From: an uncultured Candidatus Saccharibacteria bacterium
GTDB taxonomy: Bacteria > Patescibacteriota > Minisyncoccia > UBA6257 > JAUSGH01
Assembly: GCA_964360025.1 (NCBI GenBank)
Contig: CAYHUD010000001.1
Span: 3,922 to 67,921 of the forward strand
Length of the DNA stretch: 64,000 nt
Direction: 5' to 3'
Each line of letters begins with the position of its first letter. Positions within the stretch are counted from its first letter, which is position 1. Below the pieces are notes generated by a model. That model was not told the origin of the DNA. It made no database searches and saw nothing but the letters and a program-made list of their open reading frames with translations. This document shows, piece after piece, positions 2,916 to 42,892 of this stretch. The position numbers and the translations under genes are program-made.

Positions 2916-3491
2916 ATGCGTGGAGATTTAATTCTATTCGTATTAAAAACGCTTCAAGTTGGCGCCCTATCCGTTACTGCGATCGCAGATTTACTGGATG
3001 AACACAGCATTCGCAATACCAATGCCTCTTTTTGGGGGCATCCTATAAAATCACCTCCGAAGCGCAGGATGATTTTTGAAGATAAAATAAATTCTCTCTC
3101 GCGGCAAAGGATGTTGGCTAAAATGGTATCAAAATTAAAATCTGAGGGGCTGGTGGTAAAAGACAAACAAGATATATGTGGGATAACAAAAAACGGCATA
3201 GTAAAATTGGGAAAATTATTAAATCTTAGAAGTCAGACGCCGAATTATGTCACCGAACAATCAAACGAGGTTAAAATAATCACCTTTGATATTCCGGAAT
3301 CAAAAAGGTCATCCCGTGTTTGGTTAAGACAAGCTTTAAAAAATCTCCGATTTAACTTTTTACAAAAAAGCGTCTGGGTGGGCAAAACTATAATCCCCCA
3401 CGAGTTCTTAAGCGATCTCCGCCAAAGAGAAATCTTTGATTTTGTAGAAATACTCGCAGTCACTAAAAAAGGCACGCTCCGTCAAATATAA
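2916..3491 (+). CDS. winged-helix DNA-binding protein with C-terminal Cas2/VapD-like domain (AT-rich gene)
   Basis: N-terminal wHTH-like segment; C-terminal 'KIITFDIPESKRSSRVWLRQALKNLRFNFLQKSVWVGK' matches Cas2 signature (YDI...KRR...L...G.R.Q.SVF); no cas1 or CRISPR array nearby. Confidence 0.5.
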   Translation: MRGDLILFVLKTLQVGALSVTAIADLLDEHSIRNTNASFWGHPIKSPPKRRMIFEDKINSLSRQRMLAKMVSKLKSEGLVVKDKQDICGITKNGIVKLGKLLNLRSQTPNYVTEQSNEVKIITFDIPESKRSSRVWLRQALKNLRFNFLQKSVWVGKTIIPHEFLSDLRQREIFDFVEILAVTKKGTLRQI

Positions 3492-3494
3492 AAA

Positions 3495-3531
3495 TCCCCT
3501 ATCTCGTCCCATGGGACGAGATGGGGGACAA
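3495..3531. repeat. family B palindrome (tcccctatctcgtcccatgggacgagatgggggaca)
   Basis: flanks gene 2916-3491 on the 3' side, 4 nt after stop. Confidence 0.8.
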
Positions 3532-3696
3532 GATAATACCCGAGAGAAGTAGCGCCCGGATAAAATAGTGCGGCAAGCCCCGAGTTTTAGCCCGTGACTT
3601 GCAACCAGGTTGGATCAGAATCACAATTTTGCTTTTTTATAATAAATGCTATTATAGCCGTTAGGTCATTGAAAAACCGCTTTGCGGGGGTGAAAT

Positions 3697-4476
3697 ATGT
3701 CACTCGTGACCACAAAGAAGAATCCGCAGGAAATACAAGAGAAATCCGGAAGAGAATGTGTCAAGTGGTCGGATGTTTATACCAGTATTCAAAGAAGAAA
3801 TCTTCTCGCGAAAACGAAAAGGGCTCTGCAGGACTTTCTCGCCTTCCTGTGTCATGTACCGCGGCTGACCGAAGAGGTGGAGATCGCCGGAGCTTACGGA
3901 CTTGTCCCCGACAAGCTGGTCGTAGTAGGGCACGCAAACCTGCCGCCCAATACGATCTGCGAAAGAACCTGGTCCTATGAAGCCGACGCGGAAGCAAAAC
4001 CGCCCAAACCGCAATATCTCTACCAGCCCGTGCTCTGGCGAGACGCCGATCGGATCATCCTGAATTATTCCCTGACTCCGGAAGACATTTGGGAAGCTCG
4101 GGACAAAATCCAGAAGCTAACATCTTTGAAACAAAATGCCATAGGTCAGTCACCGGACGAAACGAGCGCAATAGTCTCCGCGCTCTTGGCTTTGGCTGGT
4201 TCTCCGGCGGCGTGGCGACTCATACGGACCATCCGACTAGCGGTATCAAAAGAACCGTACACTTCTCAGTCCGGAGTTCCCGAGTTTGCATGTCTCATAA
4301 TGGATACGAACTGGGATACAGAAGATTGTGGTGGCCTTTGTCATCTTATGATGGGGGGTCTTAGGCGTTATTACGTCAATACCAACAACCCAAAAGAACT
4401 TACCGCCATAGCGGCAACATACGAACTCTCTGCAGAAAAATTGCGCCAAATCAAAGAAATGATTGAAGCAACTTAA
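3697..4476 (+). CDS. hypothetical protein (259 aa)
   Basis: long ORF, terminator follows; no recognisable motif. Confidence 0.5.
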   Translation: MSLVTTKKNPQEIQEKSGRECVKWSDVYTSIQRRNLLAKTKRALQDFLAFLCHVPRLTEEVEIAGAYGLVPDKLVVVGHANLPPNTICERTWSYEADAEAKPPKPQYLYQPVLWRDADRIILNYSLTPEDIWEARDKIQKLTSLKQNAIGQSPDETSAIVSALLALAGSPAAWRLIRTIRLAVSKEPYTSQSGVPEFACLIMDTNWDTEDCGGLCHLMMGGLRRYYVNTNNPKELTAIAATYELSAEKLRQIKEMIEAT

Positions 4477-5643: not shown

Positions 5644-7479
5644 ATGGACTCTCTATACAAAAATATATTTTGGGCAGTGATAACATTGATAGTTGTCGCG
5701 GTAACGTTTTCATTTCTTGTCGGCGACGGAGAAACGACAAAAAATCTTTCCATCAACCAACTGGTCGCGGAAATAAACGCGGGGAAGGTCGCTAAAATCG
5801 CCGTCTCCGGAAACAATCTGGAAATTGAGCTTAAAGATGGGGTGAAGGCAGTGGCTAGAAAAGAAAATGAGGCGGGGCTTACCGAAACATTAAAAAACTT
5901 TGGGCTGGACAGCCGACTTTTAGAAAATGTGGACATCCAAATCAAAGACGAGTCGGGTCTGCGCTTCTGGCTGGGCATTATCATCCCGACAGTTTTGCCG
6001 ATTATCGTCATCCTCATCATCTTCTGGTCTGTTTTCCGCCAAGCGAAAAGCGGGGCATCGCAGGCATTTACTTTCGGACGCGCCAACATCCGTCTTTTCT
6101 CGTCATATAAAAATCGTGTTTCATTTAAGGATGTCGCGGGACTGAAGGAAGCCAAACAGGAACTGGAGGAAGTGGTGGATTTCCTCCGCAATCCGAAAAA
6201 GTTTATGGATATCGGGGCGCGCATACCACGCGGAGTGTTACTTATGGGCGCGCCGGGCACGGGGAAGACGCTTCTGGCTCGCGCCGTAGCAGGGGAAAGC
6301 GGCGTGCCTTTTTTTCATATTTCGGCTTCGGAGTTTGTGGAAATGTTCGTAGGCGTGGGAGCGGCGAGAACCAGAGACGCTTTTGAAACGGCAAAAAAAG
6401 CCGCGCCCTCTATACTTTTCGTTGACGAGATAGACGCCGTGGGCCGCGAGCGCGGATCCGGTATAGGCGGCGGACATGACGAAAGAGAGCAGACTTTAAA
6501 CCAGATCCTTGTGGAGATGGACGGCTTTGAACGCGATACGCGCGTCATCGTCCTTGCCGCAACGAACCGCCCCGATGTTCTGGATCCGGCATTGCTCCGT
6601 CCCGGACGCTTTGACAGGAGAGTAGTGCTTGATCTCCCCGATATTACCGACAGGGAAGCCATACTTAAAATACACGCGCTCAATAAACCGCTAGATAAAG
6701 AAGTTGATCTGCGTAAGATCGCCGTACGCACTCCGGGATTTTCCGGCGCCGATTTAGCCAATCTTGTAAACGAGGCGGCAATCTCAACCGCGAGAAAAAA
6801 TAAAAGAATCATCGGCCAAAACGAGCTGTATAATTCTATAGAAAAAGTTTTGCTTGGTCCGGAACGGCGGAACAGAGTCATTTCACAGAAAGAACGCGAC
6901 ATCACCGCCTACCATGAAGCGGGACACGCCCTTGCCGCCGCCAGTTTAAAAAATTCCGATCCGGTGCATAAAGTTTCTATTGTGAGCAGGGGACAGGCGG
7001 GGGGCTATACGCTGAAATTGCCTCTGGAAGAAACCCGCCTGCATACCCGTTCGCAATTTTTAACCGACCTCGCGATGATGCTCGGCGGCTATGCGGCGGA
7101 AGAAAAAGTTTTCGGCGAGATGTCCACTGGCGCATCAAGCGATCTGCAAAAAGCTTCGGAGCTCGCCCGCCGGCTCGTAACCCAATACGGCATGAGCGAC
7201 AAACTGGGCCCGATGACTTTCGGCAAGACACAGGAGATGATATTTCTGGGACGCGAAATGACAACCGAAAAAAATTATTCTGAAGACGTCGCCAAGGCGA
7301 TTGACGGAGAGGTCCAAAAATTTATCGCCAACGCCCATAAAACAGCGCAGAAGATTATCCAGACGCGGCGCAAAGTGCTGGATGTGATTGCTAAAGTGCT
7401 TCTGGAAAAAGAAACGATTGAACAGGACGAATTTGCCGAGCTGATGAAGCAACACAATACGAAGCCGATTATTGCTTAA
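5644..7479 (+). CDS. ftsH: ATP-dependent zinc metalloprotease FtsH
   Basis: N-terminal TM, Walker [21 protein letters not shown] region, zinc motif HEAGHAL. Confidence 0.95.
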
Positions 7480-7563
7480 GTTTTAAAATCCCCGAACTGG
7501 GGGTTTTAATTTAAATACGGATTGATATTTTACCCGAATAAAGCTATTATATAGGGTAGCAAC

Positions 7564-7636
7564 GCGCGTGTAGCTCAACGGTTAGAGCATCGAGCTTATA
7601 CCTCGGGGGTTCATGGTTCGAATCCATGCACGCGCA
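7564..7636 (+). tRNA. tRNA-Ile, apparent anticodon UAU (loop CTTATAC); no CCA encoded
   Basis: cloverleaf: acceptor GCGCGTG/CACGCGC, D GCTC/GAGC, T-arm CATGG-TTCGAAT-CCATG. Confidence 0.65.
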
Positions 7637-7652
7637 CAAAATAGCAGGTTTT

Positions 7653-7724
7653 GCGCGCTTAGCTTAGTGGTAGAGCGACCCGTTTACACCGGGTAGGTCG
7701 GGGGTCCGATTCCCTCAGCGCGCA
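7653..7724 (+). tRNA. tRNA-Val (anticodon UAC)
   Basis: acceptor GCGCGCT/AGCGCGC, anticodon arm ACCCG-TTTACAC-CGGGT; slightly atypical T-loop. Confidence 0.65.
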
Positions 7725-7804
7725 CAAATAGAATTTGTGCCGCGAAGGAATCGGATCGGGAAAAGGGATTTTAGGCTAGTAAAATAGTGACTTGGTCGGG
7801 GATA

Positions 7805-7832
7805 TTGACAAATCCTGTGTATTTGCTATAAT
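7805..7832 (+). promoter_or_regulatory. sigma70-type promoter TTGACA-N16-TATAAT
   Basis: consensus hexamers read directly; upstream of ORF 7891. Confidence 0.5.
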
Positions 7833-7890
7833 AGATGATGTAGTAAATTGACATTGTGGTTTCGGTTTTTTTTCAATTGGAGGGCATAAC

Positions 7891-8112
7891 ATGCCCAGCC
7901 AACTCAAGCGCAAGTTCACGACCGACGAGGGGCCGCACGCGCGGTTCCTCGAGTCCTGCCGGCACGGTGCCGATGTGGCGCCGCCGCCGCAGAAACCGTG
8001 TTCCCGCAACGCGCGGGAGCACAACTTCGGGGACTTCCACTCCGCGCGGCAAATCGCCGCCGCGGAGCGGATGGAGCAAGAAGACGAAGCCAATCAGGGC
8101 CTCGTCAACTAG
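7891..8112 (+). CDS. small hypothetical protein (73 aa), GC-rich
   Basis: GGAGGG RBS 8 nt upstream; high GC3. Confidence 0.45.
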   Translation: MPSQLKRKFTTDEGPHARFLESCRHGADVAPPPQKPCSRNAREHNFGDFHSARQIAAAERMEQEDEANQGLVN

Positions 8113-8220
8113 CAGAAGCCGAGGGAGGGGGAGACTCATTCTACTCCCTCCCTCGGCTGGGTGAAAATCTCTGTGGTTGTCGGTTGTTCGGGGAAAAAAC
8201 TCAAGAACAAGGAGAAAGAA

Positions 8221-8430
8221 ATGTCCGCTCCAGCAGCAGCACCGCGAAAGCACCAAGACGCTTTCCGGGTGGCGAACCGCGCCGCCCGCCACGCCCAGTC
8301 GGCAGGACCCAGCGTCCCGCCGGAGGAGAACCTCCCCGTGGGGAACACCGCCACGGAAGAGGCCTTCTATGGCGGTGTCATGCGCGCGATGCGCAACACC
8401 GCCCACGCGCCTGCTCGCGGAGGCGAGTAG
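8221..8430 (+). CDS. small hypothetical protein (~69 aa), GC-rich
   Basis: AAGGAG RBS before ATG 8221 (six-frame ORF 8161-8430). Confidence 0.4.
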   Translation: MSAPAAAPRKHQDAFRVANRAARHAQSAGPSVPPEENLPVGNTATEEAFYGGVMRAMRNTAHAPARGGE

Positions 8431-8522
8431 ACGCACCGCCACCAGGAGGTGGCGGCAACGAGAACTCTCAAACCAAGACCCAGGGGGTCAGAGGTATGAG
8501 AGTTCTTTTTTTATTTAAAGAA

Positions 8523-8692
8523 AGAGAGATTCTTCGCGGGACGCCTGCCTGCCGGCAGGCAGGCTCAGAATGACGAAGGGGTTGTTACCCTCCTGGAATT
8601 AAATTCTGTCATCCTGAGGTTTACCGAAGGATCTCAAGTGAGATTCTTCGCGGGACGCCTGCCTGCCGGCAGGCAGGCTCAGAATGACGATC
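8523..8692. repeat. family A repeat array 1 (2 long units gagattcttcgcgggacgcctgcctgccggcaggcaggctcagaatgacga + 1 mirror unit tgtcatcctgag..gaaggatctc)
   Basis: exact 51-bp unit at 8525-8575 and 8639-8690. Confidence 0.85.
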
Positions 8693-8704
8693 AACCATAG
8701 AGAA

Positions 8705-8733
8705 TTTGACAAATGGGCGTAAAACCACTATAA
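8705..8733 (+). promoter_or_regulatory. sigma70-type promoter TTGACA-N17-TATAAA
   Basis: upstream of ORF 8780. Confidence 0.45.
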
Positions 8734-8779
8734 ATACTGAAGGCAGTCGTTCATATTCCCACCTCACTGGAGGGAGAAA

Positions 8780-8971
8780 ATGCCCACACCGGTAAAAGAA
8801 CCAACTCGACGCGGACAACTGGAAGCAGAATTTGCAGAGCATCGCTGGCGGCAAAAGAAGATGAATAAGTTGGAAGATGCGGCATTCCACCCTCTGTTGC
8901 CGAATCCGGATATGGCAAAAGTCGTTTGGCAACAGATGATCCAGGATCTTCAAATCCAAAATTCGCACTAA
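8780..8971 (+). CDS. small hypothetical protein (63 aa)
   Basis: GGAGGG RBS 6 nt upstream of ATG. Confidence 0.5.
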   Translation: MPTPVKEPTRRGQLEAEFAEHRWRQKKMNKLEDAAFHPLLPNPDMAKVVWQQMIQDLQIQNSH

Positions 8972-9105
8972 AAGTTAAGACGCGGAATCTCATTACTGCC
9001 CAGAAGGGGCAGTGGTGAGAATTTTTTTATTTATAATAAAACTTGCTTTTCACGACAATTTCTTTTATCATAGGTTTTAGTTTTATTGACAACGAAGGAG
9101 GTGCG

Positions 9106-9726
9106 ATGAAAGTCTTGATCGGGCTCATCGGGAAACCGCGCGTCGGCAAAGGAACTGTTGCCGGCATCATCACAAAACTTCTGGAGGAGAAAGGGATTAC
9201 AAGTAAAAACATGCGGTTCTCTGACCCGTTGAATGACATTCTCAAAATCCTCAATATTCCAAACTCCCGCACCAATCTGCAGAATCTTGCTCTCGTCTTA
9301 AGAAATGGGATCAGCGAAGATGTGCTTGCGCGTGCAATGGAACACAAAATCCTTCAAACAAAGGGGGATGTCATCATCCTGGATGGCATCCGGTGGATAC
9401 CGGATTTCGCGATGATAAAAAAGCTGGGCGGCATCACAATTTACATCAAGGCCAGTTTAGAAACCGCTTTCCGACGGACCCTGAGAAGTCAAGAAAAGGC
9501 AGGGGAATCCGAAACTACGCTGGATCAATTCCTCGCCCAACAAAAGGCAGAATCCGAAAAGTATATTGAGGCCATCGGCGAACATGCCGATTTCGTTTTG
9601 GAAAACGACGAGGACGACGATGCCTCTCCCTCGGCGCCAAAAGTTCTGACGCCGAGAGTGGAGATGATTATCGGGAATCTCGTAATCCCGATCCTGGAAA
9701 TCCCAACGGAGGAGGGGAAAGAATGA
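9106..9726 (+). CDS. P-loop NTPase, putative nucleotide/nucleoside kinase-like
   Basis: GGAGG RBS; P-loop GLIGKPRVGKGT near N-terminus; acidic C-terminal tail. Confidence 0.55.
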   Translation: MKVLIGLIGKPRVGKGTVAGIITKLLEEKGITSKNMRFSDPLNDILKILNIPNSRTNLQNLALVLRNGISEDVLARAMEHKILQTKGDVIILDGIRWIPDFAMIKKLGGITIYIKASLETAFRRTLRSQEKAGESETTLDQFLAQQKAESEKYIEAIGEHADFVLENDEDDDASPSAPKVLTPRVEMIIGNLVIPILEIPTEEGKE

Positions 9727-10199
9727 AAAGAATGTCCGTGATCGTTTTCGTTTCGCTGATTGCGATTACCCTCACTTACGTTTGGACGGGAAGTGTCGCC
9801 GCGCAGAACAAGCCGGTGGACGATCACCACAAGGCGAAGATTTTCAACTTCACGAATGTGAACGGCAGCGGCCGCGACAAGGCCGAGGCGGAAGTGAATG
9901 CGTGGCTTGCCGACAAGAACAACAAGGCGGCGGAGCCGATGGTGCTCTTCTGTTACAACGCACCGGCAGGAACCCTGCTTGTCACCGTCATCTGGAAGAA
10001 CGACGCGGTGACAAAGCCGTATCAGGTCAGGTTTTTTCCCATCACGGCCACAAACAGAGACAGCAAGAAAGAAAAGAACAAGAAGAAGAAGTCCCTGGAG
10101 GAAGAACTGAACGAGTTTTTCGCCGGAGTGACCCTGAAGCGGGTCTGGCAGGAGACCTCCGACGGAGTTGGAATGATCTTCGTCGTTTATCAGAAGTAA
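9723..10199 (+). CDS. secreted hypothetical protein (signal peptide MKRMSVIVFVSLIAITLTYVWTGSVAA)
   Basis: ATGA start/stop overlap with upstream gene; terminator follows. Confidence 0.55.
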   Translation: MKRMSVIVFVSLIAITLTYVWTGSVAAQNKPVDDHHKAKIFNFTNVNGSGRDKAEAEVNAWLADKNNKAAEPMVLFCYNAPAGTLLVTVIWKNDAVTKPYQVRFFPITATNRDSKKEKNKKKKSLEEELNEFFAGVTLKRVWQETSDGVGMIFVVYQK

Positions 10200-10205
10200 T
10201 CTCGT

Positions 10206-10250
10206 AACCCCATAGCTACAGCGTCAGGTGACGCACGCAGCTGTGGGGTG
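10206..10250 (+). terminator. rho-independent terminator (ccccatagctacagcg...cgcagctgtggggtgttttttt)
   Basis: long hairpin + T-run. Confidence 0.6.
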
Positions 10251-10259
10251 TTTTTTTAT

Positions 10260-10990
10260 TGAAAGTAGTTGGTAGTCCATAATTCATAATTCTTGATTCA
10301 TTATTCACTCCCTACCTCCCCCGCTCTCCCCTCCTGCTTGCCGCATTGCCTTATCCGGCAAGATATGGGGCTATAGTTGCCGATTGAAGAGTAGGGAAGC
10401 GGCAATCGGCAAATGTGGCAATTGCCGTGTAAAACAATGTGTTTTACATTTGTTTTACACTAATTTTAGAGCTTTTTAGAAGCCAATCGGTAGATAAAAC
10501 CTACATTATTTGAGTGTTTCGGGGTGTTTTACATAGTGTTTTCCATGGCCTACAAGCTCGGAAGCCGATCGTGCGATGAAACCTACATTATTTGCATTTT
10601 CGTGTTTTGGAGTGTTTGACGTTTTCCTTTTTTTACACACAATGGAAAACGTTAAACATCTTTTACCGGAAAAAAACTTTTTAAATTGCCGATTGAGGCA
10701 CATCAAGACGGCAATTCAATCGGCAAATGCGGCAATTTATGCGACTAATTGCCGCATCATACGGCAAAAAATGGTTGTAGTGTTTGACGTTAAACAAACA
10801 GTTAAAGTATGGCGAGATTGCCACGGGCCGACAACTGTCGGCCCTCGTAATGACAGATCGAGGAAAACGTCAAACATCGTTTTACACAGGAATTGGACAT
10901 GGATCATGAAACACGCATCATGGATCATGTGAGAACATGCGTCCCGTACTCCGTGTTATGTGTTATGTTAAACACACACGATGTTTCACG
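10260..10990. repeat. ~700-bp repeat-dense non-coding region (duplicated ~50-bp 'gccgattga.g...ggcaat.c..tcggcaaatg.ggcaatt' unit; 'aaacctacattatttg' x2; 'gtttgacgtt'/'aacgtcaaac'; 'gtgttttaca' motifs; family E copy at 10817-10855)
   Basis: direct reading; only short spurious ORFs. Confidence 0.6.
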
Positions 10991-10996
10991 TTTTCC

Positions 10997-11365
10997 ATGA
11001 CTAACCAAATTACGGGCAAAATAGGCGAAGATCTGGCGACCGACTATCTAACATCTCGCGGATATAAGCTAATTGAAAAAAACTACCGCCAGAAGTGGGG
11101 TGAGATTGACATAATAGTCAAATCATTGTCTGGTATTCTGGTCTTCGTTGAGGTTAAAACTCTTAACGGTATCCCCGACTCCGGCCTAACTCCCGAGGAT
11201 AACATCACCGCCTTTAAAATGCGGCAACTAAAAAAATGCGCTGAGTTTTACGCTGCAAAACATCCCGAGCTGATTAACGAAAAATCGGGGTGGCGAATTG
11301 ATGTTCTTGCTATAAATATTACCGAGGACTCGCCCGCCGATATCCGCCACTATGAAAATATCTAG
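10997..11365 (+). CDS. yraN: YraN/UPF0102-family endonuclease-like protein
   Basis: GEDLA.DYL...GY.LIEKNYRQKWGEIDII....GILVFVEVK signature; start at MTNQITGK. Confidence 0.7.
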   Translation: MTNQITGKIGEDLATDYLTSRGYKLIEKNYRQKWGEIDIIVKSLSGILVFVEVKTLNGIPDSGLTPEDNITAFKMRQLKKCAEFYAAKHPELINEKSGWRIDVLAINITEDSPADIRHYENI

Positions 11366-11386
11366 CCCCGCACTTTTACAATCTTT

Positions 11387-11429
11387 GGATACGCCACTTC
11401 CAAAGTAAAACTTTGGAAGTGGCGTATCC
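11387..11429 (+). terminator. perfect 19-bp stem hairpin (ggatacgccacttccaaag-taaaa-ctttggaagtggcgtatcc)
   Basis: follows yraN stop; weak T-run, so it may instead act as a regulatory hairpin. Confidence 0.45.
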
Positions 11430-11455
11430 ACGTTTGCATATTTGGATGCGGCGAA

Positions 11456-11483
11456 TTGACTTTCTGTAGGATGTTGCTATACT
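11456..11483 (+). promoter_or_regulatory. sigma70-type promoter TTGACT-N16-TATACT upstream of nusA
   Basis: hexamers read directly. Confidence 0.4.
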
Positions 11484-11551
11484 CATAATATGGATTAAAG
11501 GTCGCTCGCGAAGCGGCCTTTATTCTTGAATTACAAAATACAAAAAATAAT

Positions 11552-12751
11552 ATGATTGATTTAAAAAGTTTATCAAAAGCGGTGTCTCAGGTTGCAGAAG
11601 AAAAAGGTATTGATGCCAATCAGGTTTTGGACGCGATTGAGTCGTCTATCGCCGCGGCCTATAAAAAGGAGTATGAAAAGCGCGGTGAAATTATTAAATC
11701 CAAATTCAGTCTCAAAACCGGAGACATGAAGTTCTGGCAGGTGAAAGTCGTCGTGGACGAAACGACGGTTGATATGACCAAGCCCGAGGAAAACACGGAA
11801 GAAATAAATTCACAAAATGAGAGATCTGCCCCCGCCGAATTTACGACTGAAGGCGAAGACAAACTGCCGCGCTATAACTCCGACCGCCATATATTAATAG
11901 AAGAGGCGAAAAAAATTAAGGAAGATGTGAAGCTCGGAGAGGAAATGGAGTTCCCTCTGGAACCGCGGGAGGATTTCGGACGCATCGCCGCACAGACGGC
12001 AAAGCAGGTTATCTTACAGAAACTTCGCGAAGCGGAAAGAGAATCAATTCTTAAAGAATTCCACAATCGCGAAGGTGAAATCGTAAGCGGACTTGTGCAG
12101 AGAATTGAGCGCAATAATATCTATATTGATCTGGGACGCACCGTCGGCGTAATGTTTTTCAACGAATCAATTCCCAACGAACACTACCGTATCGGCGAAC
12201 GCCTGCGCTTCTTAATACTCGCCGTGCAAAATGACGCGAGACTGCCGGGAATTATTTTATCCCGCGCGCATCCGAAATTTATCAACAAATTATTCTCCAT
12301 TGAGGTGCCGGAAATTGCCGATGGCAGCGTGGAGATGAAGGCTATCGCCCGCGAACCCGGAAGCCGCACCAAAATCGCCGTCCACTCTAACGTCTCCGGT
12401 ATTGATCCCGTGGGATCCTGCGTGGGACAACGCGGCACGCGCGTGATGGCGCTTTCCAATGAGCTTGGACAGGAAAAACTGGATATCATTGAGTGGTCCG
12501 ATGACGCCGCGAAATTCATCGGCAATTCCCTCTCGCCCGCCAAGGTTTCCAAAGTGGAAGCCCTGCCGCACAACGAAGCCCGGGTTTATGTCCCCGAAGA
12601 TCAGCTAAGTCTCGCTATCGGACGTGGCGGACAAAATGTCCGTCTCGCGGCCAAACTCACCGGCTGGAAAATAGACGTGCGTTCCGAAACACGCCCCACG
12701 GAAGAACAAAACGGCGGGGTGGCGGACGCGGTTTCCGGCGCTAAAGAATAA
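11552..12751 (+). CDS. nusA: transcription termination/antitermination factor NusA
   Basis: N-terminal domain, S1 and two KH regions (…GSRTKIAVHSNVSGIDPVGSCVGQRGTRV…). Confidence 0.9.
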   Translation: MIDLKSLSKAVSQVAEEKGIDANQVLDAIESSIAAAYKKEYEKRGEIIKSKFSLKTGDMKFWQVKVVVDETTVDMTKPEENTEEINSQNERSAPAEFTTEGEDKLPRYNSDRHILIEEAKKIKEDVKLGEEMEFPLEPREDFGRIAAQTAKQVILQKLREAERESILKEFHNREGEIVSGLVQRIERNNIYIDLGRTVGVMFFNESIPNEHYRIGERLRFLILAVQNDARLPGIILSRAHPKFINKLFSIEVPEIADGSVEMKAIAREPGSRTKIAVHSNVSGIDPVGSCVGQRGTRVMALSNELGQEKLDIIEWSDDAAKFIGNSLSPAKVSKVEALPHNEARVYVPEDQLSLAIGRGGQNVRLAAKLTGWKIDVRSETRPTEEQNGGVADAVSGAKE

Positions 12752-24043: not shown

Positions 24044-24139
24044 ATATTACTAATGAAAAATTCAAAAATCAAAATGGAAAATTAAAGTTTAGTTCATCGC
24101 TATTTATAATTTTGAGATTTACATTTTCAATTTACTATG

Positions 24140-24212
24140 AGGCCTGGGCGAGAATCGAACTCGCGCAATATCTCTTTTGCAGAGAGACGCCTTTCCACTT
24201 GGCTACCAGGCC
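24140..24212 (-). tRNA. tRNA-Cys (anticodon GCA)
   Basis: rc: acceptor GGCCTGG/CCAGGCC, anticodon arm TCTCT-CTGCAAA-AGAGA, T-arm GCGAG-TTCGATT-CTCGC. Confidence 0.7.
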
Positions 24213-24224
24213 GACAGCCTTATT

Positions 24225-24572
24225 TTAACTGTTTTCTTCTGTCTTTTCAATCTCCAGCAAATCCTTCTCAATCATCGCCGCCTTTTCCGGACCATGATCC
24301 AGAAAGAACAAAATACGCGGAGTGGGCCGCAAATTAAGCTTATGATTCAACTCGTGTTGAAGCCGTCCCGTAAACTTTTTTAAAACTTCCGCTACGCGCT
24401 CTTCCTTATCATGAGGGATAACGCTAAAACCGACATTGGCGTGCTCTACGTCTTTTGACACCTCTACATTAGTGATAGTGACTAGAGCGCCGTCAAACTC
24501 CAGCTCGCGAATGATTAGCTCCGCAAGAGTTTCCCTGATTAATTCACTCATTCTTTCCGGACGATGCTTCAT
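24225..24572 (-). CDS. rbfA: ribosome-binding factor A
   Basis: size/sequence pattern (R.R...L..E......TITNVEVS.D...A.V) and position directly downstream of infB. Confidence 0.75.
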   Translation of the reverse strand: MKHRPERMSELIRETLAELIIRELEFDGALVTITNVEVSKDVEHANVGFSVIPHDKEERVAEVLKKFTGRLQHELNHKLNLRPTPRILFFLDHGPEKAAMIEKDLLEIEKTEENS

Positions 24573-24580
24573 GTTAATAG

Positions 24581-26026
24581 TTATTGCCTAAAAACCAAAT
24601 GGTCGCCGACGCGGGGCTCGGTATCGGACTCAAATAACATCCCACACTCCGCGCCAGAGGCAACCACCGCCACATCTTTCTTCTGGCTTTGCAGATTGAT
24701 GATCCGGCCCTTGCCTAAAATCTCGCCGCGCCGCTCCATCTCCAAAACAAAACTATTTTTTATTTCACCTGCGACAACTTTCCCGCCCAACACCTGTTTT
24801 TTCCCGGAGCGCTTTCCAAAAAGCGCCAGAATCTCCAAATCGCCCACAATCTTCAGAGTCGTGCCTGTTTTAATCATCTCCTCCACCACCTTAACCAAAT
24901 CATAAATAATTTCCGACTGAATAATTTTCACACTACTGGCTAAAGCTAACGCCGCAGCGGCTTTTGTCGGCTTTACTCTGAAAGCAATGATCGCCGATTT
25001 ATTAGCAAGAGCCGATTTCACATCGCCGTCAGTGATTTCACCCACGCCCTCGCCGATTATTTCTACATGAACGCTTTCGGGGCGCGGCAGGCTCTTAATG
25101 ATGCCTGAGAGCGCCTCCAGTGATCCGGAAACATCACCCTTAAGAACGAAATTTAAAATCGTGAGGCCCTCTGCGGGAGCGACGGCCTTAGTTTTCGCAG
25201 TTGTCGCGGAAGCAATATCTTTTAGTTCAATATTTCCGGCAATAAATTTATCACCCACCGCCGGCAGGATTTCAAAGCCAAAAATAGAAGCGGGACTGGA
25301 CGGTATCAACATACTTTCTTTTTTACCCAGAAAATTTTCCAGCACTTTCACCCTGCCTCTCGCCGCTCCGGCTTGGATATTGTCGCCCGTTCGCAAAGTC
25401 CCATTTTTCAAAATGACATTGGCGATATTTCCCTTGCGCGTATCAAGACGGCTTTCCAGAATAAAACCCTCGGCATCTGTCTCCGGATCATAAGTCAGGC
25501 CCTCCACATCAGCGGCAAGAAGTATCAAGTCCAGAAGCTCGGGGATGCCCGCGCCTGTTTTCGCGGAGACACCTTGATAGCTAGTCGCGCCGCCGAATCC
25601 TTCCAGAAAAACTTCCTCCGAGAGAAGCTGGTTTTTAACATTTTGGATATCCGCATCGCTGGCTTTATCAATTTTATTGATCGCCACAACAAACGGTGTT
25701 TCAGTTTGTTTAAGGACCTTAATCGCTTCTTTGGTTTGATTTTGCACGCCATCAGTTGCCGCGACGAGCAAAATAGCGACGTCGGCAATGTTTGCTCCGC
25801 GGGCGCGCATCTTAGAAAATGCTTCGTGGCCCGGAGTATCAATAAAGGTAATACGCTCGCCATTATGAGCAACTTCATAGGCGCCGGTCCCCTGCGTAAT
25901 ACCGCCGGCTTCCTTCCCGGCAACATTGGCCTTCCTAATATAATCCAGCAAACTGGTTTTACCGTGGTCAACGTGGCCCATAACGACCACGACCGGCGGT
26001 CTCTTTTTCATTTCAGACATAGCCAT
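24581..26026 (-). CDS. infB: translation initiation factor IF-2 (short form); six-frame ORF extends to 26413 but N-terminal 129 codons look spurious
   Basis: G-domain [25 protein letters not shown]; start assigned at MAMSEMKK. Confidence 0.9.
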
Positions 26027-26115
26027 ATTATACGCTATTTCTATATCCCTAGTCAATTTAAGCTGTGTTTTCGTGGTTACTTTTTCACTTATTCCTATTT
26101 TGTTATAATTACAAT

Positions 26116-26610
26116 ATGCCAAAAAGAAAAATAGAAAACTTAAAAGATCCGGCGCTCGCAGAAATGAAGGAATCAACCAAGGCGCTTTTTGAAGACAGGG
26201 AGGAAGGAAAAGAAGTCGCGGGGCGGCTTTTGGAAGAAGAAAAAGAAAAGATATTAGCCGAGGAAGAGGCGGCCGAGGAAGCAACCAGGAAAGAATTCCG
26301 TGAAATGGCGGAGATGACCGAGGCGCTCCATGAAGCCAAAGAACCATTAAGAGAAGAAACCCCTCTGGATACGCTGGAGCCCAAAAGAAAAGAGGCGGTG
26401 CTCCGCTGGGCAAAAATAGCTGAAAAAAATCCGGAATTAAAGGATATGTTTAAGGCCTTTTTGTATGAGGAGGTTTTGAAAGCGCAGAAAAGAAAAAAAG
26501 AAGAAGAAACGAGGAAGGCAGAAAGGCAGAGAAAAGCGGGGACGATGCGCGCTCTTCCGCCGAAAAAACGCGGCTTTTGGGACAGGGTCAGCGGGTGGTT
26601 AAACTGGTAA
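26116..26610 (+). CDS. Lys/Glu-rich coiled-coil protein with Trp-rich C-terminal tail (…GFWDRVSGWLNW)
   Basis: paralogous in composition and tail to 28755-29423. Confidence 0.5.
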   Translation: MPKRKIENLKDPALAEMKESTKALFEDREEGKEVAGRLLEEEKEKILAEEEAAEEATRKEFREMAEMTEALHEAKEPLREETPLDTLEPKRKEAVLRWAKIAEKNPELKDMFKAFLYEEVLKAQKRKKEEETRKAERQRKAGTMRALPPKKRGFWDRVSGWLNW

Positions 26611-26753
26611 CCGGGAAGTAGAAACTCAGCTGATGAAACTAAGCGTGGGCTGAGTTTGCACTTCCTGGTAAAAATTGAGGGGTAAAAAAGCCACGCTGCC
26701 GGCGTGGCTGGGTATCATCCGAGGAAACTACTCTCCGTCTATCTTTATTCAGT

Positions 26754-26791
26754 TGTCCACTATCTCGTCCCATGGGACGAGATAGTGGACA
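26754..26791. repeat. family B 38-bp perfect palindrome
   Basis: tgtccactatctcgtcccatgggacgagatagtggaca. Confidence 0.85.
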
Positions 26792-26868
26792 ATCTACGCG
26801 GTATCAGAGGCGGGAAACTTGCCGATTAACATATAAAAGTGTATCTTATAGACAGCATCGCGCGATAT

Positions 26869-26958
26869 GGAGGCGTGGCCGAGCGGCTTAAGGCAGCATC
26901 CTGCTAAGATGTTGTCCGCGAAAGCGGACCGGAGGTTCGAATCCTCCCGCCTCCGCCA
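26869..26958 (+). tRNA. tRNA-Ser (anticodon GCU), CCA encoded
   Basis: acceptor GGAGGCG/CGCCTCC, anticodon loop CTGCTAA, long variable hairpin GTCCGC-GAAA-GCGGAC, T-loop GGTTCGAATCC. Confidence 0.8.
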
Positions 26959-27020
26959 GTAAATTTAGGCATAAATACAACAAATTTTCATCAATACCCG
27001 GAAGGGATTCGAACCAAATT

Positions 27021-27575
27021 ATGGCTATTAAGTACAAACAAAAACATCCTGAAACTTGTTTAGCAAAATGCCTTATGATTTTGTTAGAAAAGAAAGAGGG
27101 TAAAAAAATCGCTGATAAATATGAGATGGATTTACTCAATTATTCTTTTAGACATGAAAGGGAGAATATAGCTCGCGGTCACCTTGAGAAGGTCATAAAA
27201 GATTTTAGTATTTCTGTTAATTGGTTTGTTGATTCAAAAATATTTTTTGACTTTATTAAGGAAAAAAATATGAAAAAGAAAATAAAACTGGTTAACCAGA
27301 AAGTTAACTTGAAATTTATTGATAAAATTTTAGATAACCCGATTATCGTCTATTTGGATAGATTTTTTCTTTGGGATAAAAGTCACAGTTTGTATTACAA
27401 ATATCATTATCCCCATTTTATAATAATCAATAAAAAGATAGGTAATGATTATGAAATTATTGATCCAGATGACGGTAAAGTAAAAATAATTCCCAACAAA
27501 ACTTTATCAAAGGCTATTATTTCGCTAAGAAATTATTTATGGATCAGTCCACACATTATCAATATTAACCGCTAA
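27021..27575 (+). CDS. papain-like cysteine peptidase, C39-like domain (stand-alone); strongly AT-rich gene
   Basis: Q-x5-C (KQKHPETCLAKC), later HFIII and IIDPDDG resembling C39 Cys/His/Asp arrangement. Confidence 0.5.
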   Translation: MAIKYKQKHPETCLAKCLMILLEKKEGKKIADKYEMDLLNYSFRHERENIARGHLEKVIKDFSISVNWFVDSKIFFDFIKEKNMKKKIKLVNQKVNLKFIDKILDNPIIVYLDRFFLWDKSHSLYYKYHYPHFIIINKKIGNDYEIIDPDDGKVKIIPNKTLSKAIISLRNYLWISPHIININR

Positions 27576-27689
27576 TATGGATATAGCGGATTACAACAGA
27601 TTATAGCGGCAAAATTTAGTAAATCTTTTGAGCAAACTCCGGAACATCAAAATAGTTCGGACTTTCCATGTAAAGTTTCCTTAATTGTC

Positions 27690-27920
27690 GTATAATTGAA
27701 TCGATCTTCCGAATATTTAGCCGATTTATCGGTTCAAAGTTCCGGAAATCGCCACCGCCTTCGTCACGACGTAGCTTTAGCGAAGTCGGAATTCACTAAA
27801 GCTACGTCGGACTACGGCGTGATGAAATCCGCCAAGACGAGCGAAAGCGGGAAGCGGTTCGCCAAAGCGAACCTACGGCGTGATACAGTCCGCCAAGTTT
27901 TACATTCAGCGAAATCAAAT
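27690..27920. repeat. non-coding region with inverted repeat (gacgtagctttag...ctaaagctacgtc) and direct repeats (acggcgtgat.a.a.tccgccaag x2)
   Basis: direct reading. Confidence 0.5.
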
Positions 27921-27993
27921 CGACTACATCTCTTTTCTCTGTAATAATTGTTGAGGTGGTTGTATGTCACAGCCCCATTCAAGGAGGAAATCC

Positions 27994-28581
27994 ATGGCCG
28001 AGTCATATGTTCTCATGGTGTCTTTGAGGCACCAGATATCCTTGATGCGGGAGCGCATCCGGTGGCATCGCGACCAAAAAGGTGATGACCGCTGCTGGCT
28101 GGATGACTACGAAGTTTGGGCATTGCTACCCGATTCACCGCCCGAGCCCAGAACGCCACCGACCTTTGAAGAGGGAATGCGCCGTTGCCGGGAATTCTGG
28201 ACATATCGCCGCGCCGAATATCCCGATCCCGCGCCGCCAAATGCCGCGCTTGACCGCAATTGTTGGGACGACGACCTTTCGGAAATGTCCGTGGAAGAAT
28301 TGGCCCGAGAGTTCCTTCGCATCGGCGGCGCCATTCGCGCCCATCGTGGTGTGACGGGTCGTCCACGGTATCTCCCCGATGACCGCGCTCTCTACGCCGT
28401 CTTGCCGGAGAAAATTCCGGCCGACTTCCGCCTGCCGCCTAAAGAAGAATTCTTGGGCGAAGCAAAAGCTCCCAATGCCGGATGTCCCGCCTTTTGGCGA
28501 AGCCACTCCCGATGCACCGCGTGCAACCTCCACCAGTGGGGGCCGTGCCGATTGACACCCCGACTTGCTCTAAATCATTAA
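27994..28581 (+). CDS. hypothetical Cys/Trp-rich protein, GC-rich gene (C-terminal CPAFWRSHSRCTACNLHQWGPC)
   Basis: AAGGAGG RBS before ATG 27994; GC3-rich. Confidence 0.5.
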   Translation: MAESYVLMVSLRHQISLMRERIRWHRDQKGDDRCWLDDYEVWALLPDSPPEPRTPPTFEEGMRRCREFWTYRRAEYPDPAPPNAALDRNCWDDDLSEMSVEELAREFLRIGGAIRAHRGVTGRPRYLPDDRALYAVLPEKIPADFRLPPKEEFLGEAKAPNAGCPAFWRSHSRCTACNLHQWGPCRLTPRLALNH

Positions 28582-28754
28582 TTTAGATGAGCTTGAAAAG
28601 ATTTCTGTTTTTGTTTGACTAATAGCTAAATTTGTGTAAGAATCGCTGTTCGTCCGGAGCCTTGGAGTTACACTCCTCGGCCTTTTTCTTTTTTTATGAG
28701 ATATACTTTGTTATAATAAAATCTAGTTATAAACTCTTAAATTAAATTTTATTT

Positions 28755-29423
28755 ATGGCGAGAAAAAAGCTAGAAGAATTTGTCGTAGGGGGAACAGCTC
28801 CGGTTAGCGAAAAAAGATTGAAGAGTATGAAAAAGAGCCTGGGTAAAACCCTGGAAAAAGTTCTTGCTCAAAAACCGGAACCAGTGGAAGAAAAACCGGT
28901 TGATGAAAGACCCACGGCAAAGTCCGCAGCTGAAGTGATTATGGAAAAAGCGGCTAAAAAGAGAGATGAAGCGAAGGCAGAAGCTGCAAAAACAGAACAA
29001 GAACTTAATACTTATGAAAAAAGGCGGAGTGATTTAGAGGAAGCCGGCAAAGAAGCCATAGCGCAATCAATGGAGGAGAAAAAAACACGGGAAAGAAAAG
29101 CGCGGCGTGAAAACATACGCAAAGAAATGGCGGGGATAAAGGAAAAGATAAAAATAGAAGGACCGTTGTCGCCAACCACTAAAGAAAAGGAGCAAAAGGC
29201 GGAAGAACTGGCCCGCCAGCTGGCTCATAAGGGGTGGGAAGAAGCTCAAAAAAAAGACGCGGAGAAGGTGGCGATGGAACTAAGGGAGGCAGAGACCGAG
29301 AAAACCAGTATGCAGGCCGGAGAAATAGGGACAGCCCCCGCAGAGATGACATTGCCGGCTAAACTATGGGGCAAGGCCAAACAATACGGATGGAAGGCCT
29401 GGGGTTGGCTTAGAAGTTTGTAA
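28755..29423 (+). CDS. Lys/Glu-rich coiled-coil protein with Trp-rich C-terminal tail (…LWGKAKQYGWKAWGWLRSL)
   Basis: paralogue-like of 26116-26610. Confidence 0.5.
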   Translation: MARKKLEEFVVGGTAPVSEKRLKSMKKSLGKTLEKVLAQKPEPVEEKPVDERPTAKSAAEVIMEKAAKKRDEAKAEAAKTEQELNTYEKRRSDLEEAGKEAIAQSMEEKKTRERKARRENIRKEMAGIKEKIKIEGPLSPTTKEKEQKAEELARQLAHKGWEEAQKKDAEKVAMELREAETEKTSMQAGEIGTAPAEMTLPAKLWGKAKQYGWKAWGWLRSL

Positions 29424-29436
29424 CGGTTAGATTTTA

Positions 29437-30330
29437 ATGAAAAAAATACGCGTAGCAGTCCTCATGGGCGGCCCGTCCGCGGAGCACGAAATATCGCTCC
29501 GGACGGGCCGTATGGTTTTAGAACACCTTGATAAAAATAAATATCAGGCGCGAGGTATTGTTATTTCTGAATCCGGACATTGGCCGACCTCTATCGCCAG
29601 TATAAAAAGAAGCTTTGATCTGGCTTTCATCGCTATGCACGGAGAATATGGCGAGGACGGGCAGGTGCAGGAGCTATTGGAAAGGGCGGGTATTAAATTC
29701 ACGGGCTCCGGAGCCGCGGCAAGCAGACTGGGGATGGATAAAGCCGCCTCCGGCGCTTTATTTCAAAATGCGGGGCTAAAAATACCGCCACGAGCGGATA
29801 AAGTCCCTTTGGTTATCAAGCCATCCGATCGCGGATCAAGCGTAGGCGTGAGTATTGTAAAAAAGAATTACGAAATCGCTCCAGCCGTGCTTCTCGCGGC
29901 AAAATATTCCGCGAACATAATCTGTCAGAAATACATTCAGGGACGCGAGTTCACCTGTGGCATCTTGGAAACAAACAGCAAAGCAAAAGCTTTGCCGCCA
30001 ACGGAAATAATCCCTAAGACCAACTTTTTTGACTATAAAGCGAAGTATACCAGCGGAGCGTCGCGAGAAATAACGCCTCCGGAATTGTCCGTTTCTAAAA
30101 TTAAAGAAATTCAAAGAACCGCGCTTGCGGCGCATCGCGCCATCGGCGCGCGGGGACTATCACGGACCGATGTTATCATGGATAAAAAGGGCGTTTTTTA
30201 TGTATTGGAAATAAACACCCTGCCGGGACTGACAAAAACCAGCTTATTACCGCAAGAAGCGGCGGCTCTGGGCATAGAGTTCCCGCGTCTCTTGGAGATT
30301 ATTATTGAAAATGCTCTGCGTAGGGTATAG
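29437..30330 (+). CDS. ddl: D-alanine--D-alanine ligase
   Basis: N-terminal RVAVLMGGPSAEHEISL, ATP-grasp C-terminal half. Confidence 0.85.
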   Translation: MKKIRVAVLMGGPSAEHEISLRTGRMVLEHLDKNKYQARGIVISESGHWPTSIASIKRSFDLAFIAMHGEYGEDGQVQELLERAGIKFTGSGAAASRLGMDKAASGALFQNAGLKIPPRADKVPLVIKPSDRGSSVGVSIVKKNYEIAPAVLLAAKYSANIICQKYIQGREFTCGILETNSKAKALPPTEIIPKTNFFDYKAKYTSGASREITPPELSVSKIKEIQRTALAAHRAIGARGLSRTDVIMDKKGVFYVLEINTLPGLTKTSLLPQEAAALGIEFPRLLEIIIENALRRV

Positions 30331-30401
30331 AGACTAGGGTATAGCCAATAGGAAGATGCAGATACTAGCCACTAGGGTATGGGGTGTAGTAAAATAGGAG
30401 T

Positions 30402-30869
30402 ATGGAAATAAAATGGGAAGCTCCGGAGTTTGACGATCATAAAAGAGGGGCAATCTGGTACTATAGTGTCGTTGTGGTTTCTGTGGCATTAATTATGCTT
30501 TCCGCATGGCGAGGAAATTTTCTCTTTTCCATTTTTGTTATTATCGCCGCCGCGCTTATCATCGCCTGGAGTTTTGAAAAATCTCCCATCCATCTTTTCT
30601 CCGTATCTGAAAAAGAAATACACCTCGGCACGGCCAAAACATACCGCCTGTCGGAGCTGGAAAGCTTCTCTCTCGCCGGAGCTGGACAAGACGACGCAAA
30701 ATGGGGTAAATTAGTCCTGCGGCCAAAAGGACGTTTTCACATGGATATTATTCTCAATATACCGGGTGAAAACGTAGAAAGCGTGAGAAATCTGCTCGCA
30801 AAAATATTGCCGCAATTCGCGCACCAGGATTCTCTGATGGAGGAGATAATCAGGGCGTTAAGACTTTAA
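30402..30869 (+). CDS. hypothetical membrane protein (2 TM + soluble domain)
   Basis: ORF with hydrophobic N-terminus. Confidence 0.45.
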   Translation: MEIKWEAPEFDDHKRGAIWYYSVVVVSVALIMLSAWRGNFLFSIFVIIAAALIIAWSFEKSPIHLFSVSEKEIHLGTAKTYRLSELESFSLAGAGQDDAKWGKLVLRPKGRFHMDIILNIPGENVESVRNLLAKILPQFAHQDSLMEEIIRALRL

Positions 30870-30883
30870 AAAAGCCCTCATCG

Positions 30884-30955
30884 TTCAACGGATAGGACGC
30901 AAGATTGCGGATCTTGCAATTGAGGTTCGATTCCTCATGAGGGCACAATTCATAA
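30884..30955 (+). tRNA. tRNA-Arg (apparent anticodon GCG; loop TTGCGGA)
   Basis: acceptor GCCCTCA/TGAGGGC, T-arm TGAGG-TTCGATT-CCTCA; paralogous to tRNA-Arg at 42362. Confidence 0.65.
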
Positions 30956-42742: not shown

Positions 42743-42774
42743 CAAAAATAATTTAGTTTTACGATAAATGATTT

Positions 42775-42812
42775 TGTCCCCTATCTCGTCCCATGGGACG
42801 AGATAGGGGACA
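42775..42812. repeat. family B palindrome (tgtcccctatctcgtcccatgggacgagataggggaca)
   Basis: direct reading. Confidence 0.85.
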
Positions 42813-42892
42813 AAATAAAAAACACCTCGGCTACAAAGACACTCTTAACAGGAGTGGTTTTGTTTTGAACGTCTTTGTTCCTGAATCCGAAA

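Follow-up and report, generated by a model that had tools for sequence, protein, structure and literature searches.

The DNA that follows a serine tRNA gene, tRNA-Ser(GCU), in a Patescibacteria genome appears to be a small stack of independently acquired pieces that inserted site-specifically where the tRNA gene ends, a reading to which we assign a probability of roughly 0.68. The locus lies in the 64,000-nucleotide stretch analyzed here (the window), which comes from an ultra-small bacterium of the candidate phyla radiation (CPR) in Hainich groundwater; the nearest species-level genomes are Paceibacteria-like metagenome-assembled genomes (MAGs) with Ddl identities of 52-64%. Piece 1 (26959-27759; 801 nucleotides, 30% GC) would be a miniature integrative element, made up of a conserved 62-nucleotide left end, one cargo gene predicted to encode a cytoplasmic cysteine enzyme of the papain/C39 clan, and a 144-nucleotide right-end module. 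Piece 2 would consist of a junction-type left end (27760-27900) and a GC-rich gene whose right end has eroded. Both genes are foreign, as a first-pass annotation made from the sequence alone had proposed: their GC content at third codon positions (GC3) departs from that of the neighbors, relatives with the same order of IF2, tRNA-Ser and Ddl do not have them, and their families are patchily distributed in Patescibacteria and DPANN archaea.

The tRNA call was confirmed by ARAGORN and Rfam. Between 26116 and 29423 the only open reading frames (ORFs) are those of two Lys/Glu-rich (KE-rich) proteins, KE1 and KE2, and, between them, the C39-like gene and the GC-rich gene. The sharp compositional drop followed by a GC-rich ORF, described in the first-pass annotation, is borne out by the GC profile: relative to a window mean of 48%, GC is 0.23-0.29 at 27000-27600 and 0.61 at 28100-28500, and the steps run from 0.64 in the tRNA gene to 0.30 in 26959-27759 and 0.54 in the segment that follows. 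The C39-like gene (27021-27575) has a GC of 0.27 and a GC3 of 0.28, the GC-rich gene (27994-28581) has values of 0.59 and 0.62, and GC3 in the neighboring genes is 0.44-0.51. Since GC3 deviates in both genes, their composition is not merely an amino-acid effect. The identical locus, with identical junctions, occurs in three contigs from independent assemblies of replicate samples, which excludes an assembly chimera. Relatives retain two gene blocks, one of tRNA-Leu(UAA), tRNA-Cys, rbfA and infB and the other of ddl, orf155 and tRNA-Arg(GCG) (24139-26050 and 29437-30946 in the window). Between these conserved blocks tRNA-Ser(GCU) stands in either orientation, which implies inversions at the hot spot, and the cargo varies by genome. 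The syntenic relatives L012, L014, L018 and L019 (related loci are given L numbers) contain neither foreign gene.

The right-end module ties piece 1 to a recurrent arrangement. Directly after the C39-like gene, the minus strand of 27616-27759 reads GGGDFRNFEPINRLNIRKIDSIIRQLRKLYMESPNYFDVPEFAQKIY and then a stop; the same module comes after a C39-like gene of 75% identity in L004 and L005, with two further copies in L004. In 6 of the 9 independent module loci (window included) a tRNA-Ser gene lies upstream; the cargo there reads in the direction of the tRNA, and the module closes the unit on the opposite strand. By chance, a tRNA-Ser gene would be expected within 3 kb in about 3% of cases (genome of ~1 Mb, ~5 tRNA-Ser genes). 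Both the isoacceptor and the cargo differ among these loci. In L149, tRNA-Ser(UGA) is followed by a deacetylase gene, a module, a NUDIX gene and a second module; L150 has tRNA-Ser(GCU), a deacetylase gene (64% identical to that of L149) and a module; L143 has tRNA-Ser(CGA), a NUDIX gene and a module. L152, fetched as a prospective test, has tRNA-Ser(CGA) with a glyoxalase gene and a module after it, and L004 has a tRNA-Ser(UGA) gene and, 2.7 kb downstream, three modules, the C39-like gene directly preceding one of them. The inserts begin directly at the tRNA-Ser 3′ end in the window (26959), L143, L149, L150 and L152, in agreement with the insertion point suggested earlier for the window.

The ends themselves also recur. 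The left end of the window insert (26959-27020) matches the sequence 3′ of tRNA-Ser(GCU) in L150 at 26 of 30 positions, and its 13-mer AAGGGATTCGAAC (27003-27015) recurs without a mismatch (13/13) in L143, equally far from tRNA-Ser(CGA). Within this 13-mer lies an inverted T-loop-like 11-mer (27005-27015); the T-loop-like fragment previously reported at the boundary is thus a real, recurrent left-end feature, inverted relative to the GGTTCAAAG of the module. At the far end, CGCCACCGCC (27750-27759) agrees with CGCCTCCGCC in the tRNA gene (26948-26957) at 9 of 10 positions, with GGTTCAAAG and GGTTCGAAT, respectively, upstream; this attachment site (att)-like repeat is short and imperfect. The first-pass annotation had looked to 28600-28750 for a tRNA-Ser 3′-end repeat, but none is there, only promoter and terminator blocks. 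No full tRNA 3′-end repeat with at most 3 mismatches over 28 nucleotides occurs in the window, and a candidate degenerate core at 28639 found no support. Every module, however, is bounded by the att-like core described above, and what comes after a core is also found after tRNA ends. In tRNA orientation the module end, ...GGTTCAAAGTTCCGGAAATCGCCACCGCC, resembles the tRNA-Ser end, ...GGTTCGAATCCTCCCGCCTCCGCC. The L004 tRNA end and the L150 module core share 24 of 26 positions (CCGCCAGATTGGCAACTTTGAAC), and the L151 core plus flank is collinear with the L152 tRNA end plus flank at 67 of 92.

We infer that the outer edge of the module mimics the tRNA-Ser 3′ end (GGTTCAAAG...CGCCACCGCC), and that recombination of the tRNA end (...CTCCGCC) with the element core (...CACCGCC), with the crossover after the final C of each, would insert the element between the tRNA gene and the downstream DNA. 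Older inserts would be displaced outward by new arrivals. The uninserted site would then read CTCCGCC joined directly to TTCGTCACG (at greater length, ...CCCGCCTCCGCC joined to TTCGTCACGACGTAGC), and an excised circle would read CACCGCC joined to AGTAAATTTAGG (at greater length, ...GGAAATCGCCACCGCC joined to AGTAAATTTAGGCATAAA). The recombinase, which is not encoded at the locus, would presumably be supplied in trans by full-length phage-like relatives that end in the module. Elements of this kind are present in L151, L154 and L155, the last from a viral contig of IMG/VR (UViG_3300025154_002045, 55.9 kb in full). They share a 938-residue protein, a holin-like protein, an Amidase_2 protein and a 71-residue protein at 79-99% identity, and their similarity reaches the module and stops exactly at GGCGGTG, beyond which the sequences are completely different; the module edge is therefore a mobile-element boundary.

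On the outer side of this boundary, the junction segment that would open piece 2 consists of TTCG, a 20-bp hairpin (27767-27809, an inverted repeat with 21-nucleotide arms) and then a direct repeat (27812-27836 and 27873-27897; CTACGGCGTGAnnAnnTCCGCCAAG units, CTACGGCGTGA..TCCGCC) that surrounds a second hairpin (27856-27873). Folding z-scores in the segment are -4.4 and -5.0. The inverted and direct repeats of the spacer between the two genes had been recognized correctly, although the spacer measures 388-418 rather than 230 nucleotides. In L152 the flank of tRNA-Ser(CGA) agrees with the segment (27760-27900) at 37 of 40 positions, and in L151 the sequence beyond the module core does so at 36 of 42; the closest relatives lack the segment downstream of tRNA-Ser(GCU). 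Elsewhere such sequence comes after a tRNA-Ser end or a module core, and the GC-rich gene therefore probably arrived separately, in an earlier insertion. Known RNA families were not detected in the spacer at E≤1, and five related loci yielded tRNAs only; remnants of neighbor genes from related loci were also considered for the spacer and rejected, as tblastn gave no matches. Small GIY-YIG genes (77-78 residues) follow the junction segment in L086 (5569-5805, after tRNA-Ser(GGA)) and L151 (5773-6006, after the module core), and their products may be nuclease partners of such junctions.

An unlikely, though not far-fetched, alternative is that the locus is a prophage remnant, in which a tRNA-Ser-integrating phage suffered internal deletions that left a moron-like cargo gene beside attR, the short units being decay products. 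Termination of the phage-like element by the module in L151, L154 and L155 is in keeping with such decay, as are the absence of a recombinase and the degenerate state of several modules (a deletion in L004b, an internal stop in L004c and no start in the window copy). The regularity of the units argues otherwise. The window, L143 and L150 have left ends of equal length (62 nucleotides), immediately followed by an ATG at equal offset (the annotated L150 cargo gene starts ~270 nucleotides beyond this shared-offset ATG), and an intact right end, each with a different single cargo gene, and arrays of two to three such units exist; random deletions would not yield such regular left and right ends around varied cargo. 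No phage structural or lysis genes are present in the bounded element of the window.

Less probable again is the model of the first-pass annotation, a single classical genomic island that brought the two genes and the spacer to the tRNA in one event, with duplication of the flanking KE-rich gene. In its favor, the composition of each gene is foreign, the pair is located between tRNA-Ser and the conserved ddl block, and homologues of the GC-rich gene are likewise near tRNA-Ser genes in L086 and L087. However, the two genes deviate in opposite directions (GC3 of 0.28 versus 0.62), the element boundary with its att-like core (27759/27760) separates them, and none of 34 C39-like loci and 3 loci of the GC-rich gene contains both families. 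Nor are the flanking proteins detectably paralogous: KE1 and KE2 give a nonsignificant BLASTP E value of 1.4, with only a short Trp-rich tail motif in common, and the repeat expected at 28600-28750 is missing. That no insertion occurred at all, the genes being vertically inherited with amino-acid-driven composition or the arrangement an assembly artefact, is scarcely credible: the families do have amino-acid biases (rich in K, I, N, Y and F for the C39-like family and in R, P, A and D for the GC-rich one), and homologues deviate mildly from their own flanks (2-10 GC points under and ~3 over, respectively), but the window genes lie 21 points under and 11 over, their GC3 deviates by -20 and +13 points, far above homologues in their own genomes, both are absent from all syntenic relatives, and three independent assemblies agree.

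Several observations weigh against stacked insertion at the tRNA. Only CCGCC is an identical core within the 9/10 match, so that for the window alone a chance match is possible. Neither an empty site nor a circular junction was observed; Ddl of the closest available relative (L006) is only 64% identical, and hence no true empty site was seen. No integrase or recombinase gene is present in or beside the block or in the gene lists of the module loci, and in L145, L151 and L154 the expected side, of which 0.8-2.6 kb could be inspected, contains no tRNA-Ser. For the GC-rich gene, no right end can be recognized. In L152 the junction-type segment is proximal to the cargo rather than distal, so the simplest reading of it as a native trailer fails and the order of events is uncertain. 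Finally, the tRNA-like part of the module folds into no true T-arm, and the coding signature of the module is left unexplained by the insertion model.

This coding signature emerged from a comparison of six module copies of exactly 144 nucleotides. Variability at codon positions 1, 2 and 3 is 0.25, 0.22 and 0.42, and the frame shows 153 synonymous differences; the two remaining forward frames show 56-59, and one frame of the reverse complement 140. Together, the third-position variability and the synonymous excess indicate that the module is under protein-level selection, although it has neither a conserved start codon nor a longer parent gene. An exhaustive search returned 66 representative proteins with the module and a profile search 205 matches; in all 66 representatives, and in all 120 of the 205 matches that were listed, the module forms the C-terminus of short ORFs with unrelated N-termini, and its candidacy as the C-terminus of a longer protein was rejected on these grounds. 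No Pfam or PDB relative of the module was found. Other candidate identities were rejected as well. As a tRNA fragment, the module is called by neither ARAGORN nor Infernal, and its T-arm does not pair. As an ORF rebuilt on excision, with the left end providing the ATG, it is in frame in only 3 of 15 junctions, and as a double-glycine substrate of the C39-like enzyme, it co-occurs with that enzyme only in the window and L004/L005.

The cargo of piece 1 belongs to a family with 77 homologues in Patescibacteria and DPANN archaea (Nanoarchaeota, Woesearchaeota). Among 60 homologues, C13, H132 and D148 never vary and Q7 is kept in at least 90%, which upholds the Q-x5-C...H...D arrangement read from the sequence previously. 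The call of a C39-like peptidase stands at the clan level, on fold and residues, and not at the family level: the match to Pfam C39 (PF03412) is sub-threshold (16.3 bits versus a cut-off of 22; E=0.0086), with a precomputed PF03412 match in a few homologues. The family profile matched BtrH_N/CtaG weakly in the PDB (E=0.012). An AlphaFold model of the 184-residue protein (pLDDT 93) shows a papain-like fold with the canonical order of Gln, Cys, His and Asp, and Foldseek matched it to CtaG, ComA PEP, PCAT1, LahT150 and PeiR, with template modeling (TM) scores of 0.5-0.58 to ComA PEP, PCAT1 and LahT150. The gene is thus predicted to encode a stand-alone enzyme of the papain/C39 clan. In fold and in the arrangement of Gln, Cys, His and Asp the protein is like C39/BtrH_N (CtaG), and the CtaG positions altered in the H128A and D144N structures correspond to its PHF histidine and IIDP aspartate in the alignment. 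Unlike Peptidase C39, it falls below the Pfam cut-off, stands alone at 184 residues and has an extra helical insert. Across the 34 C39-like loci no neighbors are conserved, neither an ABC exporter nor a gene for a double-glycine leader peptide; tRNA-Ser adjoins the gene in 1 of 33 metagenome loci. The family resides mostly in AT-rich genomes (flanks of 25-42% GC). For this protein and the product of the GC-rich gene alike, searches gave no viral-contig relatives and no significant matches to defense or phage protein families.

The family of the GC-rich gene comprises more than 250 proteins, 50-60% identical, from Patescibacteria, DPANN and a few other MAGs. Its C-terminal cysteine cluster, C164-x9-C174-x2-C177-x7-C185, was identified correctly at first reading and is largely conserved: C164, H171, C174 and C185 are family invariants, together with a DDRCWxDD motif, several other Asp residues, C34 and C65, and C177 is not. 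The protein has no sequence match in Pfam, NCBIfam, PHROG, PADLOC or the PDB and no fold relative among PDB or predicted viral (BFVD) structures. In L087, a gene of Peptidase_C39_2/C70-like type (8029-8754) lies 1.5 kb downstream of the homologue of the GC-rich gene. NUDIX genes recur near tRNA-Ser and modules (L086, L087, L143, L149), which may be coincidence. Downstream of the GC-rich gene, the promoter block, also assessed by a promoter scan, and the terminator block have counterparts in L010 at 4067-4016 (92% identity) and 3328-3294 (91%), respectively. In L010 they bracket a 223-residue gene on the same side of tRNA-Ser, and in the window they enclose nothing. The two genomes share these blocks although Ddl is only 55% identical between them, which points either to a mobile expression shell common to both or to a recent deletion.

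Two of the module loci have features of their own. In L149, genes for a methyltransferase and an M16 peptidase lie between two identical tRNA-Ser(UGA) genes (5897-5986 and 8430-8517) that are 2.5 kb apart, which looks like another integration footprint at tRNA-Ser. L004, which carries the closest C39-like homologue, is a compositional mosaic at 7000-12000, with GC of ~0.40 up to 7 kb and ~0.60 thereafter; the ~0.60-GC block carries DEAD/Helicase_C genes and two unknown proteins.

The KE-rich genes that flank the region had been taken for paralogues, produced by a duplication that accompanied the insertion. Paralogy was rejected on the BLASTP result given above, and in L006 the gene immediately before ddl, in the position equivalent to KE2, encodes a KE-rich protein of 320 residues whose tail is Trp-rich (BLASTP E values against this protein of 0.14 for KE2 and 0.32, not significant). 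From its position upstream of ddl, KE2 is therefore probably a core gene. In L001, one of the replicate assemblies (3261-3927, corresponding to window 28755-29423) KE2 matches in two pieces with a gap of ~10 nucleotides and is called at 179 residues, which indicates population-level variation or an indel in a low-complexity gene. KE1 has no Pfam or NCBIfam family. The palindrome reported at 26754 was verified as a perfect 40-nucleotide one (26753-26792) of a dispersed family (TTGTCCACTATCTCGTCCCA plus its reverse complement), near-identical over 40 nucleotides at 958-997, 2840-2879, 3495-3531, 26753-26792 and 42774-42813; these ~5 sites compare with 0.01 chance matches to the 20-nucleotide half-site. 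Two copies lie ~30-80 nucleotides from tRNA genes (tRNA-Lys, tRNA-Ser), the L001 copy is partly deleted, and the family could be a terminator, a binding site or an element of the repetitive extragenic palindromic (REP) type.

The closest analogue among known systems is the tycheposon of Prochlorococcus. Tycheposon islands lie on the 3′ side of specific tRNA genes, including tRNA-Ser(UGA); successive integrations displace older elements outward, and partial tRNA copies separate the units (bioRxiv 10.1101/2020.12.28.424599). Serial integration at tRNA 3′ ends, variable cargo, degenerate remnants and some phage-like relatives are common to both. In contrast to tycheposons, the units described here have no tyrosine recombinase or replication module, span 0.8-1.5 kb with a single gene, carry the distal repeat inside a conserved 144-nucleotide module with a protein-coding signature, use several tRNA-Ser isoacceptors (GCU, UGA, CGA) and reside in Patescibacteria. 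Like integron cassettes (an ORF plus attC), they are single-gene units without a promoter-bearing mobility gene, have a conserved recombination-type end and form arrays by a fixed site. Unlike integrons, they have no IntI gene or attI site, are anchored by a tRNA gene, and show no R′/R″ boxes that we could find; whereas attC is conserved merely as a folded hairpin, the end module is conserved in sequence and is codon-like. In the SSV-type integration of archaea, known from the work of She and colleagues on gene capture in archaeal chromosomes, attP reportedly lies inside the integrase gene, which is split on integration. Similarly, the ORF of the module starts exactly at the tRNA-like att core and is without a 5′ part when integrated; unlike the SSV-type gene, its frame has 48 codons and is no integrase, and an N-terminal partner was not found (in-frame ATG in 3 of 15 junctions). 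Group I tRNA introns of Patescibacteria (PMC13011429) were considered and are not relevant here. A partial literature search found no description of such elements in Patescibacteria.

Table. Positions of features at and around the tRNA-Ser(GCU) insertion site, in window coordinates.
Feature	Position	Strand	Remarks
KE-rich protein 1 (KE1), 164 residues	26116-26610	+	Trp-rich tail ...RGFWDRVSGWLNW; GC 0.47, host-like; neighbor, outside the insert
40-nucleotide perfect palindrome, dispersed family	26753-26792	.	Repeat search
tRNA-Ser(GCU)	26869-26958	+	ARAGORN; Rfam tRNA, 55 bits
attL-side core CGCCTCCGCC in the last bases of tRNA-Ser(GCU)	26948-26957	+	Core comparison
Putative insert left end, 62 nucleotides, GC 0.32	26959-27020	+	Contains AAGGGATTCGAAC at 27003-27015, just 5′ of the cargo ATG
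Cargo gene, predicted papain/C39-clan protein of 184 residues, GC 0.27	27021-27575	+	Q7, C13, H132, D148
End module, 144 nucleotides, 47 codons plus stop	27616-27759	-	GGGDFRNFEP...FAQKIY-stop; no start codon
attR-side core CGCCACCGCC (+ strand), the module 5′ end	27750-27759		
Junction or "trailer" segment, GC 0.54	27760-27900	+	TTCG, hairpins, two CTACGGCGTGAnnAnnTCCGCCAAG units
Cys/His/Asp-rich protein of 195 residues, GC 0.59	27994-28581	+	AAGGAGG 7 nucleotides 5′ of the ATG
Promoter block (TTGACT-17-AAGAAT, 28592-28643) and terminator hairpin block (28659-28693)	28592-28693	+	15 nucleotides apart; empty expression shell
KE-rich protein 2 (KE2), 222 residues	28755-29423	+	Tail ...LWGKAKQYGWKAWGWLRSL; host-like GC

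Taken further, and here we are tentative to the point of doubt, the units may represent an undescribed cassette system of Patescibacteria that has no integrase of its own. In such a system, single genes with a 62-nucleotide (or ~20-nucleotide) left end and the 144-nucleotide module would be stacked at the 3′ end of any tRNA-Ser by a phage-supplied recombinase, and the 48-codon frame that starts from the att core would be translated into a peptide with a junction-dependent N-terminus, which might, for instance, set recombination directionality or have a regulatory role. It would move genes such as the C39-like one between Patescibacteria lineages, drawing on a DPANN pool. The module is an oddity in its own right, as protein-level selection without a start codon or a parent gene has no ready explanation. 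The locus also flags two protein families, a stand-alone papain-like enzyme and a highly conserved Cys/His/Asp-rich protein of Patescibacteria and DPANN. Patescibacteria have tiny genomes, and their gene exchange is poorly understood; a recurrent tRNA-Ser hot spot with one-gene units and conserved ends offers a concrete, testable route of gene gain that is tied to a phage-like element.

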